64,000 bases of DNA from Escherichia coli (GTDB lineage Bacteria > Pseudomonadota > Gammaproteobacteria > Enterobacterales > Enterobacteriaceae): assembly GCF_044324785.1 (NCBI RefSeq), contig NZ_CP172127.1; one strand, given 5' to 3'. The notes beneath the pieces are model-generated. The model was not told where the DNA came from. It ran no database searches and saw nothing but the letters and a program-made list of their open reading frames with translations. Shown here piece by piece: positions 509 through 46,113 of the stretch. Each line of letters opens with the position of its first letter. The stretch's first letter is position 1. The position numbers and the translations under genes are program-made.

Positions 509-709
509 AATTCTCTCGTTCTGATGACAGGTCAGATCCGCTTCACCTGATGAAGCGGCCAGGGGAGTGCCCCCACTTTAAGGGCGGGCATTGTAGCGCA
601 ATCGTTGGGGTTGGCTCCAGTGTAATTGTGATGAGCTTTTCGATGCCTGGCGTACAATTGACATCAGAATTGAGTATATTTACGACCGTGAATGCTAAGG
701 AGTTAAAAC

Positions 710-1315
710 ATGTGGATGTTAAAGAAGGGAATCACGCTGGCTCTGTTGGTTCTGTTTTCTCTGCCCGCTACTGCCGGTCTTTCGCTGGAGGAGACTGCTC
801 GTAAGGTGATTATCGGCTTTCAGCAAAAAGATGCTCAATTAATCAACTCGTTAATTGATAAAAAAACGGGGTTGTATGTTCTCTTCCAGCGTGGCGCTTC
901 GATGGATGTCGAAAATTTTAAGTCAATTGATTTTAAAACGCCTGTTCCCGAGTATTTGCTGTGGCCTTCGGCAGGGGAACATATTCCGCGAGATGAAGAG
1001 TTTGATAAGAAAACTATCCCGGAATTTGACTGTGAACGTGGTTGGAATAAGCACGGATATTTTATTAGCAGCAGCGATACACACCATAAAGTCAGCCGTA
1101 ATTTGGTCTTCACGCAGATGTTTGGTTCACCGCGAAACACTATTTCTGATGCGCAGATTGCCGCAGCGCGTCGAATGGAGTACGGGGCCGTGCGTGTGGT
1201 CGCTGCGCCAGAAGGGGGTAGCGATGGACTGGTATTTTATTTAAGTCAACTTTACGGTTATGACCGTGACTGGTATCTGACGGTGGTGGATCAGATTGGT
1301 GATTGTGGGGCGTGA
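710..1315 (+). CDS. hypothetical secreted/periplasmic protein (201 aa) with N-terminal signal peptide
   Basis: ORF with strong SD (TAAGGAG at 696-702, 7 nt before ATG 710). N-terminus MWMLKKGITLALLVLFSLPATAG has a signal-peptide shape. No family recognised. Confidence 0.6.
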   Translation: MWMLKKGITLALLVLFSLPATAGLSLEETARKVIIGFQQKDAQLINSLIDKKTGLYVLFQRGASMDVENFKSIDFKTPVPEYLLWPSAGEHIPRDEEFDKKTIPEFDCERGWNKHGYFISSSDTHHKVSRNLVFTQMFGSPRNTISDAQIAAARRMEYGAVRVVAAPEGGSDGLVFYLSQLYGYDRDWYLTVVDQIGDCGA

Positions 1316-1345
1316 TAAAGATTTATTCGCCCGCAAGCAGTGATG

Positions 1346-2746
1346 CTATTTAAAAGGTATGTAACCCCTTAATCTGTTGTGAAGTTCCGGATTGCGGGTA
1401 AAAAGCGCCTGAAGTTGCTGACGCTGGGGAGCATTCGGTTGAATGCCCGAAAGATTGAAATTGCGTTGCCATATTGCGAGCTGTTTATCTGCAAATTCTT
1501 CAGTTAGTTTGTGTTGCGATTGCAGAAGAAGAATTAAACCGTCCCATTTGTTCAAGTTATGATACAACCGACAATATGCGCAAGCATGTTTAACTGACGG
1601 TGCGTTTTCCAGCAACTGACGTATTTCCTCGAACGTGAGCGGAACGCGACACCATACACAGATGTTAACCATAAATCGAAGCCCGGAGGCGTCCGGGTTA
1701 GCCAGTGTGGTCAGAATAATCCCTTTGGCACCACCATCAGGATTGGCTTTCGCAAGAATATACATAGCGGCTAATCGCAGTGGGAATACATCCTGTGATA
1801 ATCCCCATTCAGCCAGTTTTAAAATATTGGCATCATGAATGGAGTCCAGCCCGTATAAAGCTGCCCGGCGCTGTGAGGGAGTATATTCAGTCGAGGTGAC
1901 AACATGACGCCAGAATTGCGCAACATCCATGACGTCATTAAGCATGTTTTTAGCGCGTAGACGGATCAACATATTGTTATCCAGCAGTAATGCGCTGTAC
2001 AACGCCGGAGGAATTTCTATAGCTCGGTCAGTAAGGCTAAACAACGTTGCTTGTCGAATACGCGGCCAGCGGTCTTTTAACAGACGAGTTAATACCGCTT
2101 CGCTTAACGGTAATTGTTGACGCAGCCAGTGGGTGACCGCCAGCATTCGTAAACCTTCGTCGGGCTGCTTGAGTATTAAAAGCAGCGAAGATTCATCATT
2201 AAAGTAGCCATATTCAATCAGCGTTTGTAATACTGCGCGGGAGAGTTTTTTATCAGGGCAAGTAAGCCAACACGTTAATTGTGGACGGCTATTTTCTGTC
2301 AATAAAAATCTAAGTATCTCGTCTACAAATGCACGGTGATCGTAACGCTGGCATTGGAGAAGGTTACGTATCATGGGAAGATTAACGGCAAATGCCGCTG
2401 CATTCTTATCCTTCTTTAAATGACGTAACGCTATGGTTGCAGCAAGGCGAACCTCTTTTACCCAGTCATTAGCTGCAAGTAATAATTCTTCTATAGCTGC
2501 AACATCCTCTTTTTGTCCCAGACATTGCACGGCCTTTTCTCGTATATATCCATTGTGGTGATGGGTAAGCTGGCAAAGAACCAGAGTATCGTTGAGATCA
2601 CAATCATGCGCTATATAATTGCCTGGATCGGCTATCATCGCCTGGAGTTGTTGCTGGATAAGAAATAATTCACAGTCAACAGAATTATTCATTTCGACAT
2701 TAAACAAAACCCTGCGTGTAAATAATGTACGCAATCCTTTGAGCAT
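1346..2746 (-). CDS. hypothetical HEAT/armadillo-like repeat protein (466 aa)
   Basis: Long ORF with an AAGGA SD upstream of ATG 2746. Repeated alpha-helical motifs (VRLAATIALRHL, LRLAAMYILAKANPDGG, IRLRAKNML) typical of HEAT/PBS-lyase-like repeats. No U32 peptidase motifs. Confidence 0.65.
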   Translation of the reverse strand: MLKGLRTLFTRRVLFNVEMNNSVDCELFLIQQQLQAMIADPGNYIAHDCDLNDTLVLCQLTHHHNGYIREKAVQCLGQKEDVAAIEELLLAANDWVKEVRLAATIALRHLKKDKNAAAFAVNLPMIRNLLQCQRYDHRAFVDEILRFLLTENSRPQLTCWLTCPDKKLSRAVLQTLIEYGYFNDESSLLLILKQPDEGLRMLAVTHWLRQQLPLSEAVLTRLLKDRWPRIRQATLFSLTDRAIEIPPALYSALLLDNNMLIRLRAKNMLNDVMDVAQFWRHVVTSTEYTPSQRRAALYGLDSIHDANILKLAEWGLSQDVFPLRLAAMYILAKANPDGGAKGIILTTLANPDASGLRFMVNICVWCRVPLTFEEIRQLLENAPSVKHACAYCRLYHNLNKWDGLILLLQSQHKLTEEFADKQLAIWQRNFNLSGIQPNAPQRQQLQALFTRNPELHNRLRGYIPFK

Positions 2747-2868
2747 AATTTTCCTTATCAGTTATGAGGAGAAAACTCATTTCATGATTAATAATTTCTT
2801 GAGGGATAGTAACTCTGTGGTGAGAGAAAATAAAGCCGGACGCCAACAACCCACGCCCGGCATCGTAA

Positions 2869-3201
2869 TTACGTATTGTCTTTCACCGTCTGGCTTGTGC
2901 CATTGGCTTTAACGGAGGCAATTCCGGTTTCACGAGATTGCGCGGTGGCGTACATCTGGCTGGAGCCGATAATTTGATGATTGGCGGCTTTCAGATTGAA
3001 ATAGAATTTGCCGTTGCTTGCCGTTTTTTTCTCATAGCGTTCTTCTTGCGGGCTGTTGCTACGCACCGACGCGATGCCCTTTTCCGCAGAGGCTTTTGAT
3101 GTATACAGCTCGCTGGTGAGGATAGTCTCACCATTGCCCGCTTTTAGCACAAACCGAAATTGATTATCACTGCTCTTACTGAGTTCAAACCAACCAGCCA
3201 T
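2869..3201 (-). CDS. yegP: UPF0339/DUF1508 protein YegP (110 aa)
   Basis: Translation from ATG 3201 (AAGGAG SD 5 nt upstream) reads MAGWFELSKSSDNQFRFVLKAGNGE..., matching YegP. The track ORF is 13 codons longer via an upstream start. Confidence 0.85.
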   Translation of the reverse strand: MAGWFELSKSSDNQFRFVLKAGNGETILTSELYTSKASAEKGIASVRSNSPQEERYEKKTASNGKFYFNLKAANHQIIGSSQMYATAQSRETGIASVKANGTSQTVKDNT

Positions 3202-3336
3202 AATGACTCCTTGATTGAAATTGCGTATCGAAAACAGCATCTAAAAGGACTGTTTACCGATTAAAGTATGAGCGATTTTCTGGTGCCTGCCAGGGCGAAG
3301 AGATAATGTCAGTTTGCTGACCATGCGTGGAATAAT

Positions 3337-3372
3337 GTTGCCGGATGCGGCGTGAATGCCTTCTCCGGCAGG
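3337..3372. repeat. REP (repetitive extragenic palindrome) element between baeR and yegP
   Basis: Sequence GTTGCCGGATGCGGCGTGAATGCCTTCTCCGGCAGG matches the enterobacterial REP consensus (GCCGGATGCGGCGTGAACGCCTTATCCGGC). Confidence 0.6.
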
Positions 3373-3380
3373 TAAAAATG

Positions 3381-4103
3381 TTAAACGATGCGGCAGGCGT
3401 CGGCTTCCCAGCGGTAACCGACGCCGTAAACGGCGCGGATAAATGACTGTTCGGCGTCGAGAGATTCCAGCTTGCGACGCAGGTTTTTAATGTGGCTGTC
3501 GATGGTGCGGTCGGTTACTACGCGGTAGTCGTCATAAAGATGATTGAGCAATTGCTCGCGGGAGAACACTTTTCCTGGTTCATGAGAGAGCGTTTTCAGC
3601 AGACGAAATTCCGCAGGCGTCAGGTCAAGCATTTTACCGCGCCATGAAGCCTGAAAACGACCTTCGTCGATAATCAACGGGCTTTCAGCATCCTGTTGCT
3701 GCAACTCACGCTGCGGTTTGCAACGGCGCAAAATGGTTTTGACGCGCGCTACCACTTCCCGTGGGCTGTACGGTTTGCAGATGTAGTCATCTGCGCCAAT
3801 TTCCAGCCCCAGCAGGCGGTCGATCTCTTCGATTTTTGCTGTCACCATCACGATCGGAATGTCAGAAAAATGACGAATCTCCCGACACAGCGTCAGGCCA
3901 TCGGTACCTGGCAGCATCAGATCGAGCAGGATCAGATCCGGCGGCGACTGGTGAACGTAGGGCAGTACCTGATCGCCGTGGCTGATAAGCGTCGGCGCAT
4001 AGCTCGCAGCACGCAGATAATCAATGAGCAACTGCCCCAGCTTCGGTTCATCTTCCACGATCAAAATACGCGGTGTGTTTTCGTCGATTGGTAACTCGGT
4101 CAT
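3381..4103 (-). CDS. baeR: response regulator BaeR (OmpR family), 240 aa
   Basis: Full-length translation [26 protein letters not shown]... recognised as BaeR. 4-bp overlap with baeS. Confidence 0.95.
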
Positions 4104-14434: not shown

Positions 14435-14589
14435 TGGAGGAATTATGAAACACTGTCGGGAATCGTCTGAATGACGGGCACATTTGCGAGCACGCATCCA
14501 GTAATAACACATGAAACTATTTTATCTACGCGTTAGCGATAGACTGCTTGCATGGCGAAAGGAGGTAAGCCGACGATTTCAGCGGGACG

Positions 14590-14740
14590 CTGAAACGGGA
14601 AAGCCCCTCCCGAGGAAGGGGCCATAAATAAGGAAAGGGTCATGATGAAGCTACTCATCATCGTGGTGCTCTTAGTGATTAGCTACCCAGCATACTAAGA
14701 CTACCAGGGCGGGGGAAACCCCGCTCTACCCTCACTCCTG
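14590..14740 (-). ncRNA. sib: Sib antisense sRNA (antitoxin of ibs copy 1); boundaries approximate
   Basis: Minus-strand promoter-like TTGACA (14770..14765) and a CATACT -10 downstream of the ibs stop. Transcript would be fully antisense to ibs. Ends not determined. Confidence 0.45.
14642..14698 (+). CDS. ibs: Ibs-family small hydrophobic toxin (type I TA), copy 1: MMKLLIIVVLLVISYPAY
   Basis: 18-codon ORF after an AAGGAAAGGG SD. Sequence matches the Ibs toxin peptide family. Confidence 0.75.
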   Translation: MMKLLIIVVLLVISYPAY

Positions 14741-14917
14741 AAAGTATGCCTTCACGATAAGATTGTCAATCTGCAGGCTTTGCAGTCTGCGATCCTGCCA
14801 GCAAATATTCTTTGCGAGACGTTACGCAATAATCACATGTGAAACTATTTTATCCGCAAGTCAGCGATAGACTGCATTCAGGGCGAAAGGAGGTAAGCCG
14901 ATGATTTCAGCGGGACG

Positions 14918-15068
14918 CTGAAACGGGAAAGCCCCTCCCGAGGAAGGGGCCTTAAATAAGGAAAGGGTCATGATGAAGTGGATCATCATCGTGGTGCTCT
15001 TAGTCATAAGCTTCCCGGCTTACTAAGACTACCAGGGCGGGGGAACCCCCGCTCTACCCTCACTCCTG
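14918..15068 (-). ncRNA. sib: Sib antisense sRNA (copy 2); boundaries approximate
   Basis: Placed by repeat periodicity (~328 bp) relative to copy 1. Confidence 0.4.
14970..15026 (+). CDS. ibs: Ibs-family small hydrophobic toxin, copy 2: MMKWIIIVVLLVISFPAY
   Basis: Second repeat unit, same architecture. Confidence 0.75.
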   Translation: MMKWIIIVVLLVISFPAY

Positions 15069-15249
15069 AAAGTATGCCTTCACGATAAGATTGTCAATCT
15101 GCAGGCTTTGCAGTCTGCGATCCTGCCAGCAAATATTCTTTGCGAGTCGTTACGCAATAATCACAGAGGAAACTATTTTGTTCACGCGTTAGCGATAGAC
15201 TGCATTCAGGGCGAAAGGAGGTAAGCCGACGATTTCAGCGGGACGCTGA

Positions 15250-15400
15250 AACGGGAAACCCTCTCCCGGAGAAGAGGGCTTTTAATAAGGAAAGGGTTAT
15301 GATGAAGCACGTCATCATACTGGTGATACTCTTAGTGATTAGCTTCCAGGCTTACTAAGAACACCAGGGGGAGGGGGAAACCTCTCCCTAACCCTCACTC
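15250..15400 (-). ncRNA. sib: Sib antisense sRNA (copy 3); boundaries approximate
   Basis: Placed by repeat periodicity; a TTGACA-like box (TGTCAA on + strand) at 15427-15432. Confidence 0.4.
15299..15358 (+). CDS. ibs: Ibs-family small hydrophobic toxin, copy 3: MMKHVIILVILLVISFQAY
   Basis: Third repeat unit, same architecture. Confidence 0.75.
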   Translation: MMKHVIILVILLVISFQAY

Positions 15401-15578
15401 CTGAAATTATGTCACTCCGCCCTTAGTGTCAATCGACGGCTCTCCGTTCTTGCGAGGCGAATAGCAAAATTTTCTGCGCCGCCGGGCCTAATTCTGAAAG
15501 TTTCTTCGTTTGCTCTTATTTCATTGTTGCGGTCGGTATGATACCGGGCCTCAATAATTCTCTAAGAAAGGATTTCTT

Positions 15579-16238
15579 ATGAGCGAACAAATCACGTTTG
15601 CCACCAGCGATTTTGCCAGTAACCCGGAACCACGTTGCCCCTGCATTTTGCTGTTGGATGTTTCTGGTTCGATGAGTGGTAGACCTATTAATGAACTTAA
15701 CGCCGGATTGGTTACCTTTCGCGATGAACTGCTTGCCGACCCGCTGGCCTTAAAAAGAGTGGAACTCGGCATTGTGACGTTCGGCCCGGTGCATGTGGAA
15801 CAACCCTTTACCAGCGCCGCTAATTTTTTCCCGCCCATCCTGTTTGCCCAAGGCGATACACCAATAGGCGCTGCCATTACCAAAGCCCTGGATATGGTAG
15901 AGGAGCGCAAACGTGAGTATCGTGCAAATGGTATTTCGTATTATCGCCCGTGGATTTTCCTGATCACCGATGGCGCTCCAACCGATGAGTGGCAGGCTGC
16001 CGCCAACAAAGTGTTTCAGGGGGAAGAAGATAAGAAGTTTGCCTTCTTTTCCATCGGTGTTCAGGGGGCGGATATGAAGACTTTGGCACAAATCAGCGTT
16101 CGTCAGCCTTTTCCACTGCAGGGATTACAATTCCGTGAACTGTTTAGCTGGTTATCCAGTTCACTGCGTTCGGTTTCCCGCTCCACGCCGGGAACGGAAG
16201 TTGTGCTGGAAGCGCCAAAAGGCTGGACGTCAGTGTGA
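15579..16238 (+). CDS. yegL: von Willebrand factor A (vWA/TerY-like) domain protein YegL, 219 aa
   Basis: MIDAS-like motif [11 protein letters not shown]. Good SD (AAAGGA). Stop overlaps the yegK GTG start. Confidence 0.9.
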
Positions 16239-31634: not shown

Positions 31635-31673
31635 CAGTGTATTGGTAGCTAAAAAGCCAGGGGCGGTAGCGTG
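31635..31673 (+). promoter_or_regulatory. JUMPStart element with ops (RfaH antitermination) site upstream of the colanic acid operon
   Basis: CAGTGTATTGGTAGCTAAAAAGCCAGGGGCGGTAGCGTG contains the canonical ops GGCGGTAGCGTG, ~180 bp upstream of wza. Confidence 0.7.
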
Positions 31674-46012: not shown

Positions 46013-46113
46013 TAGTTGAATAATCAACCGGATTAATTCTCCGGTAAATAACGACAAAAACAAAATTGGCCGTTTCGGTCAGGGCCAACTACTGCCTGAA
46101 AAAGGGTAACGAT

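Follow-up and report, generated by a model that had tools for sequence, protein, structure and literature searches.

The DNA analysed here is a stretch of 64,000 nucleotides of Escherichia coli (contig NZ_CP172127.1 of assembly GCF_044324785.1), hereafter referred to as the window. The divergently oriented genes mdtA and yegL are separated in it by a spacer of 1,215 bp which holds an array of three tandem ibs/sib units, each one carrying on the plus strand an ibs open reading frame (ORF) for a hydrophobic peptide of 18-19 amino acids and on the minus strand a full-length Sib RNA gene. Tandem Repeats Finder reported a single array at positions 14502-15411 (period 328, 2.8 copies, 88% matches, score 1421), and the starts of the ORFs are spaced 328 and 329 bp, instead of the unit of about 327 bp given in the initial annotation of this DNA. 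Its description of the locus as three ibs/sib type I units next to mdtA was borne out by the ORFs, by three matches to the RNA family RF00113 and by the tandem array, and the three peptide translations that it gave matched ours exactly. The exact MdtA protein of the window is listed in 449 blocks of a public collection. The flanking genes, the array and the three ibs ORFs are as follows:

14363, minus strand: start codon of mdtA
14499-15440: whole array of three tandem ibs/sib units, period 328-329 bp (Tandem Repeats Finder, three RF00113 matches, unit alignment)
14642-14698, plus strand: ibs ORF of unit 1, 18 amino acids, MMKLLIIVVLLVISYPAY, B-group; Shine-Dalgarno sequence AAGGAAAGGG at 14630-14639
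14970-15026, plus strand: ibs ORF of unit 2, 18 amino acids, MMKWIIIVVLLVISFPAY, B-group; Shine-Dalgarno sequence at 14958-14967
15299-15358, plus strand: ibsA ORF, unit 3, 19 amino acids, MMKHVIILVILLVISFQAY; Shine-Dalgarno sequence at 15287-15296
from 15579, plus strand: yegL

The same Shine-Dalgarno sequence, AAGGAAAGGG, a strong ribosome-binding site, precedes all three ibs ORFs with 2 nt between its end and the ATG, and the Shine-Dalgarno sequence, the ATG, the stop codon, the -35 and -10 boxes of the Sib promoter and its +1 are present in each of the units. The initial annotation was to be given up if only two units were real or if the third ORF was devoid of a promoter or a Shine-Dalgarno sequence; instead, ORF, Shine-Dalgarno sequence and Sib promoter were intact in 3/3. 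The similarity of the array to the ibs/sib family is far beyond chance.

As for the peptides, all three match RefSeq Ibs proteins, that of unit 1 by way of annotated coordinates, and precomputed matches to PF13956 (Ibs_toxin) exist for the three genes in assembly GCA_037978695.1, whose locus is 100% identical to that of the window. In strain N3, whose locus is 99.5% identical, PGAP calls 'Ibs family toxin'. The unit 1 peptide equals the translation of unit 1 of an O104:H4 strain, where the CDS at those coordinates is annotated as WP_001386901.1, a protein annotated in CFT073 and ST131 too; the unit 1 peptide is thus probably WP_001386901.1. The peptide of unit 2, with W4, is exactly WP_012767741.1, which is annotated in N3, EC0026B, EDL933, BL21, CFT073 and ST131, and that of unit 3 is identical to IbsA of K-12 (YP_002791247.1 / WP_010723109.1). 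Lysine 3 and leucine 11 occur in all three; a basic residue at position 3 and Leu11 are conserved in the Ibs family (bioRxiv 10.1101/2025.05.26.656083). Residues W4, Y15 and Q17 had been presented in the initial annotation as diverged, which did not hold: Q17 is the residue of K-12 IbsA itself, and W4 and Y15 are common alleles, the former being that of WP_012767741.1 and the latter occurring in WP_012767742.1, WP_101685758.1 and, most probably, WP_001386901.1.

Alignment of the whole units to those of K-12, which the initial annotation had proposed as a check, gave 99.1% identity between unit 3 and ibsA/sibA and 97.3% between unit 1 and ibsB/sibB. On this comparison unit 3 is ibsA/sibA, and ibsA is the unit adjoining yegL, as expected of the mdtA-yegL ibs/sib array (the ibsA/ibsB locus). 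The K-12 unit (b4667/b4436) likewise adjoins yegL and shares promoter and Shine-Dalgarno sequence with unit 3, from which it differs in a few substitutions in the ibs leader and in one base of the RNA, at Sib position 138 in the 3' terminator region. K-12 ibsB/sibB (b4668/b4437) lies proximal to mdtA like unit 1, with which it shares an identical P6 loop and an identical second target-recognition domain (TRD2), and the sole change in the peptide is F15Y; TRD1 of K-12 SibB is, however, that of unit 2 except for 1 nt. The combination found in K-12 B occurs in no unit of the window and exists as a separate unit in four-unit arrays such as those of BL21 and EC0026B. The label of IbsB in MG1655 is still 'putative toxic peptide'. 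Unit 1 also has 98.2% identity with unit 1 of EC0026B, and unit 2 has 99.4% identity with its counterpart in N3 and 93.0% with the K-12 B unit. Unit 2 is the one absent from K-12, and the two B-group units of the window, 1 and 2, are distinct from each other.

The array of O157:H7 EDL933 (WP_012767742.1, WP_012767741.1, IbsA) shows the same order as that of the window, namely a Y15-type unit, the W4 unit and ibsA, with identical W4 and IbsA peptides; residue 4 of the unit 1 peptide is I4 in EDL933 and L4 in the window. A query of 1,351 bp which included the ends of mdtA and yegL gave about 97% identity between the window and an O157:H7 genome.

The three matches to RF00113 (SIB_RNA) cover the full length of the model (1-147) with E values of 1.6e-29 to 2.1e-32, the gathering score of the family being 56 bits. 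Ends of the Sib RNAs were set by alignment to the annotated sibA and sibB genes of MG1655, and the RNAs and their promoters are predicted as follows:

14598-14733, minus strand (5' end 14733, 3' end 14598): Sib RNA of unit 1, about 136 nt, RF00113 141.6 bits, fold z = -3.7
14741-14769, minus strand: Sib promoter of unit 1, TTGACA (14769-14764), 17 nt, TACTTT (14746-14741), +1 G at 14733
14926-15061, minus strand (5' end 15061, 3' end 14926): Sib RNA of unit 2, about 136 nt, RF00113 137.8 bits, fold z = -4.5
15069-15097, minus strand: Sib promoter of unit 2, TTGACA (15097-15092), 17 nt, TACTTT (15074-15069), +1 G at 15061
15253-15396, minus strand (5' end 15396, 3' end 15253): SibA RNA of unit 3, 144 nt, RF00113 149.5 bits, fold z = -4.9
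15404-15432, minus strand: sibA promoter, TTGACA (15432-15427), 17 nt, TAATTT (15409-15404), +1 G at 15396

An antisense Sib promoter in every unit had been announced by the initial annotation, and TTGACA followed after 17 nt by TACTTT or TAATTT is indeed present in 3/3, in each case with 7 nt between the -10 box and the position that corresponds to the annotated 5' end of sibA or sibB in MG1655. The predicted RNAs span the entire ibs ORF together with 44-46 nt 5' of the ATG and 35-38 nt past the stop codon (44 and 35 nt, respectively, in unit 1), and end in a GC-rich hairpin followed by UUUCC. Their folds have the multi-hairpin shape of the family with the terminal GC-rich hairpin, and the z values of -3.7 to -4.9 were obtained against shuffled sequences. 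A generic sigma-70 and terminator scan called none of the Sib promoters and terminators; only 3/6 bases of the -10 boxes agree with the consensus, and the U-tracts are short. By homology to the ends annotated in K-12, each unit is nevertheless assigned a putative Sib promoter and intrinsic terminator of its own. The SibA RNA is identical to the annotated MG1655 sibA at 143/144 positions and the RNA of unit 1 to MG1655 sibB at 131/136, with all 5 differences in the part aligning with TRD1 of SibC; the RNA of unit 2 is identical to MG1655 SibB at 129/136 positions and 97.8% identical to that of unit 2 of EC0026B.

We also compared the units of the window with each other. Units 1 and 2 are the closest pair (92.4% identity), differing at 25/328 positions, of which 12 fall in the first 55 nt, on the ibs leader/promoter side, and 11 in the segment overlapping the Sib RNA. 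The 100 nt comprising the Sib promoter and the downstream spacer (14719-14818 versus 15047-15146) are free of differences, and the two Sib promoters are identical. The 11 differences between the two RNAs are distributed among TRD1 (5), the apical loop of the P6 hairpin (4), TRD2 (1) and the loop of the 5' hairpin (1), and the main stems are broken by none of them. The single difference in TRD2 is flanked by two uninterrupted identical stretches of 26 nt. SibA differs from each of the other two RNAs at about 40 positions.

The paradigm for these systems is ibsC/sibC of K-12, in which two independent target-recognition domains of SibC begin the pairing: TRD1 (+46 to +68, P5 loop) pairs with the ORF, and the translation-initiation region is the target of TRD2 (+99 to +115), which requires the help of the P6 loop (Han et al. 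2010, PMC2943612). Either domain alone is sufficient for repression by SibC, and the two are the most variable parts of the Sib family and determine cognate specificity (Han et al. 2010, PMC2943612). The units of the window share with ibsC/sibC the layout, with the antisense RNA over ribosome-binding site and ORF, the architecture of P1, P5, P6 and terminator, and the positions of the variable TRD1 and TRD2, but the RNAs themselves are only 57-62% identical to SibC. Since the differences between units 1 and 2 within the Sib RNA affect almost exclusively its recognition loops, the two units probably are at least partly orthogonal toxin-antitoxin pairs, and a pattern centred on the loops would be expected for pairs that discriminate between each other. 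Given the identical stretches of 26 nt around TRD2, cross-repression between units 1 and 2 may nonetheless take place, and non-cognate Sib RNAs have been reported to be able to repress ibsA of K-12 (PMC2943612).

Anatomy, family membership, orthology and population frequency are observations of this work, and for expression, repression, toxicity and specificity we rely on the family. Pairing of Sib and ibs RNAs stops ribosome binding, the duplex being probably processed by RNase III (review PMC4147584), and an excess of Ibs leads to depolarisation of the membrane (bioRxiv 10.1101/2025.05.26.656083). Each Sib RNA of the window is perfectly complementary to the ibs ribosome-binding site, the start codon and the entire ORF and, by analogy with the K-12 family, would be transcribed from its own promoter. 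First contact would be made through exposed loops: TRD1 would pair with the ORF in its 3' half, and the translation-initiation region would be contacted by the P6 loop together with TRD2. From there the duplex would extend, ribosome binding would be blocked and RNase III would probably cut, so that no toxin is made. If Sib were lost, Ibs would enter the inner membrane, with depolarisation and a stop of growth as the predicted outcome. Toxicity on overproduction is known for the Ibs peptides of K-12 and for Salmonella IbsA (PMC4147584; bioRxiv 10.1101/2025.05.26.656083), and the latter has been reported to be an inhibitor of FoF1 ATP synthase (bioRxiv 10.1101/2025.05.26.656083).

In order to locate the starts of the ibs transcripts, we aligned the leaders to the upstream regions of ibsC and ibsD of K-12 and to the T7 primer sequences of Han et al. 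2010 (PMC2943612), which placed the counterpart of the mapped ibsC/ibsD transcription starts at about 14580 in unit 1 and suggests the following candidate regions:

14540-14580, plus strand: candidate ibs promoter/start region of unit 1 (conserved TAGACT at 14540-14545 and homology to the ibsC/ibsD start)
about 14868-14908: equivalent candidate region of unit 2
about 15196-15236: equivalent candidate region of unit 3

A/B-type units carry an insertion of 22 nt, just upstream of the mapped starts, which the leaders of ibsC, ibsD and ibsE of K-12 do not have. A convincing -35 box was not found in A/B-type units for either of the two ibs promoter candidates, that is, the TAGACT -10 and the ibsC/D-homologous start.

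The number of units at this locus was estimated in two systematic samples (40 and 60 rows) taken from ranked match lists of 5,426 complete E. coli genomes, each row being classed according to how many Ibs genes were annotated and how far the match extended. A query consisting of the 136-nt Sib2 RNA did not separate the copy-number classes cleanly, and locus-spanning queries were used for the census. The shares given below are estimates from 100 rows, 2 of which were fragmentary matches and were left unclassified:

4 units: about 14% of the 100 sampled rows; BL21 (including BL21-AI), EC0026B, some ST131
3 units: about 42% of the 100 sampled rows; O157:H7 EDL933, O104:H4 C227-11
2 units: about 40% of the 100 sampled rows; K-12, CFT073, some ST131
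1 unit: about 2% of the 100 sampled rows; AR62.2

By this census, arrays of three units and arrays of two are about equally frequent in complete E. coli genomes. The initial annotation had given two copies for K-12, which agrees with the K-12 annotation (ibsB/sibB and ibsA/sibA), and had spoken of an extra copy in the present strain; this stands in the sense of one more unit than in K-12, but the third unit is not peculiar to the strain. K-12 is not representative in this respect, and its allele is among the shorter ones of a common polymorphism in copy number, two units being merely one of several common states at the locus. The system, the three-unit allele and the variation in copy number are already known, annotated in RefSeq and published in 2010: PGAP annotates three-unit loci such as those of O157:H7 EDL933 and O104:H4 as 'ibsA + Ibs family toxin x2', tandem duplication of ibs-sib loci within one intergenic region has been reported, and the Ibs copy number varies with the strain, with 6 copies in EDL933 (Table 1), 7 in O157:H7 Sakai (text) and 7 each in S. 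boydii and E. fergusonii (Fozo et al. 2010, PMC2887945). The array belongs to a textbook type I toxin-antitoxin family in a common allele, and is of little importance beyond its correct annotation. Work on Sib specificity or on the phenotypes of ibs deletions in strains other than K-12, such as EHEC, BL21 or ExPEC, has one or two additional B-group units to account for in comparison with K-12.

We consider it very probable that the array consists of three independent, intact Ibs/Sib type I modules in tandem, which represent one allele of a polymorphism of 1-4 units common in E. coli. A recent duplication of ibsB/sibB in this particular strain, with one copy diverging into a new toxin, was implied by the initial annotation and could be imagined from the fact that K-12 has only two units and that units 1 and 2, with 92.4% identity, are more similar to each other than either is to unit 3. 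Yet the two are 7.6% divergent, each of them is 98-99% identical to its counterparts in other strains, both B-group peptides were already RefSeq entries, and the same three-unit layout is that of about 42% of the sampled complete genomes. A divergence of 25/328 positions together with an identity of 98-99% across strains indicates that the three-unit state is old and shared and does not stem from a recent duplication, so that we regard this explanation as refuted, with hardly any probability left to it. Erroneous assembly of the repeat, with a true copy number other than three, seems even less probable to us. Arrays of a 328-bp repeat can collapse or expand in short-read assemblies, but these units differ enough (25 or more positions) to be told apart, the structure recurs in closed genomes, and a stretch of 6,248 bp around the array was 100% identical to GCA_037978695.1 and 99.9% identical to GCA_028598205.1; as an independent NCBI assembly is identical over the same 6.2 kb, the array is not an assembly artefact.

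That one or two units are relics in decay, repeats of the old 'QUAD/SIB' type which no longer make toxin or antitoxin, is unlikely as well, if somewhat less so than the two preceding explanations. It would fit with the free gain and loss of repeats at this locus, where copy numbers range from 1 to 4 and an insertion of an IS splits the array in one K-12 derivative, and with the wording 'putative toxic peptide' for IbsB in MG1655. Decay, however, is not what the units display: each of the three has an intact ORF, Shine-Dalgarno sequence, Sib promoter and terminator hairpin, the CM scores of the other two units nearly equal that of SibA, and the differences between units are located in the recognition loops, not in the stems or signals.

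Comparison of arrays from different strains showed that the W4 unit is the first in CFT073, the second in EDL933 and the window and the third in EC6, that ibsA is absent from some arrays (CFT073, EC6), and that the leader types of the W4 and ibsA units are swapped in BL21 relative to the window. Likewise, SibB of K-12 has the P6 loop and TRD2 found in unit 1 of the window and, but for 1 nt, the TRD1 found in unit 2. We considered whether sibB of K-12 is a direct chimera of units 1 and 2, a proposal weakened by the occurrence of the B-type unit as a separate one in four-unit arrays. Across strains the units thus look mosaic, and the history of the array is clearly reticulate, which would be expected from unequal crossing-over and gene conversion. 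Tentatively, and with rather less than even confidence, the array could be viewed as a cassette system, with which these comparisons are compatible and in which unequal crossing-over and gene conversion might reassort Sib recognition modules, leader segments and spacer segments among units. If this was the case, strains would differ in number (1-4), order and combination of toxin and antitoxin specificities, and if either TRD suffices, as in SibC, reassortment of modules would give rise to networks of cross-protection among units that can be predicted.

Finally, an outgroup scan was carried out with exact 17-mers against GTDB species representatives, which returned mostly chance matches and about 10 informative enterobacterial loci, some of them incomplete. 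Among these few informative loci, E. albertii and Escherichia sp. MOD1-EC7003 (a cryptic species) have a single unit with an 18-aa peptide, and several Citrobacter species have a single unit with a 19-aa peptide adjoining mdtA. These single-unit outgroups give a weak hint of an expansion of the array within E. coli.

In the array of three tandem ibs/sib units in the mdtA-yegL spacer, the similarity between the two B-group units, units 1 and 2, is distributed unevenly. They were identical over the 100 nucleotides that hold the Sib promoter and the spacer downstream of it (14719-14818 and 15047-15146, 100% identity), yet they differed at 12 positions within their first 55 nucleotides, which suggests, from sequence comparison, patchy homogenisation by gene conversion inside the array. 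In E. coli HE_50, a K-12 derivative, the array is split by an IS4-like IS421 element located between the ibsB and ibsA units.

All A/B-type (ibsA/ibsB-like) leaders share a strong Shine-Dalgarno-like sequence, AAGGAGGT. Unit 2, which encodes the W4 peptide, and the ibsA unit of K-12 both have an ATG placed 6 nucleotides past AAGGAGGT that starts a six-codon mini-ORF; units 1 and 3 carry ACG where unit 2 has this ATG. The ibsC, ibsD and ibsE leaders lack the 22-nucleotide insertion in which this A/B-type segment is located. The mini-ORF of unit 2 and yegL, one of the genes flanking the array, are as follows:

14901-14921, mini-ORF in the unit 2 leader (leader segment 14887-14921), 6 codons, MISAGR*
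15579-16238, yegL, intact, encoding a vWA-domain protein

In strain N3, the closest complete genome, yegL carries a frameshift according to its annotation (N3 locus 2779-3435). In the assembly GCA_028598205.1, which matches the array locus, yegL was absent from the gene calls, and the alignment of this assembly to the window contained four gap openings over 6.2 kb.

Compared with K-12 and the majority of complete E. coli genomes, the baeSR-mdtDCBA-yegL-dgcE segment (within window 1-24000) was only about 95-97% identical, with N3 as the top complete genome at 98.2%. For the adjoining udk-yegH segment the best matches reached 98.5%, and nearly all genomes fell in a 95-99% band. Since the draft assembly GCA_037978695.1 matched the window at 100% identity over the 6.2 kb compared, and N3 reached only 98.2% over the baeSR-dgcE segment, the lineage of the window is, as judged from these sequence matches, well sampled by drafts and without a representative in the complete-genome set.

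Between trhP and yegP (window 600-2834) lies an insertion of 2.2 kb that K-12 lacks. Among 5,426 complete E. coli genomes only 5, N3 being one of them, have it at full length. It contains two ORFs:

710-1315, + strand, 201 aa
1346-2746, - strand, 466 aa, annotated by PGAP as 'HEAT repeat domain-containing protein'

Searches of NCBIfam and PADLOC with the 201-aa product returned zero matches, and the only PADLOC match of the 466-aa product was a weak one to HEAT-ARM_XIII (E = 1.6e-7).

Further along, the O-antigen gene cluster at window 56900-64000 (with wzx, wzy and glycosyltransferases) is of the O22 family and 99.5% identical to O22 strains. Three further elements were located in the window:

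31635-31673, second JUMPstart element, in the colanic-acid cluster, upstream of wza
46060-46109, algC RNA motif
56933-56971, JUMPstart element preceding the O22-family O-antigen cluster
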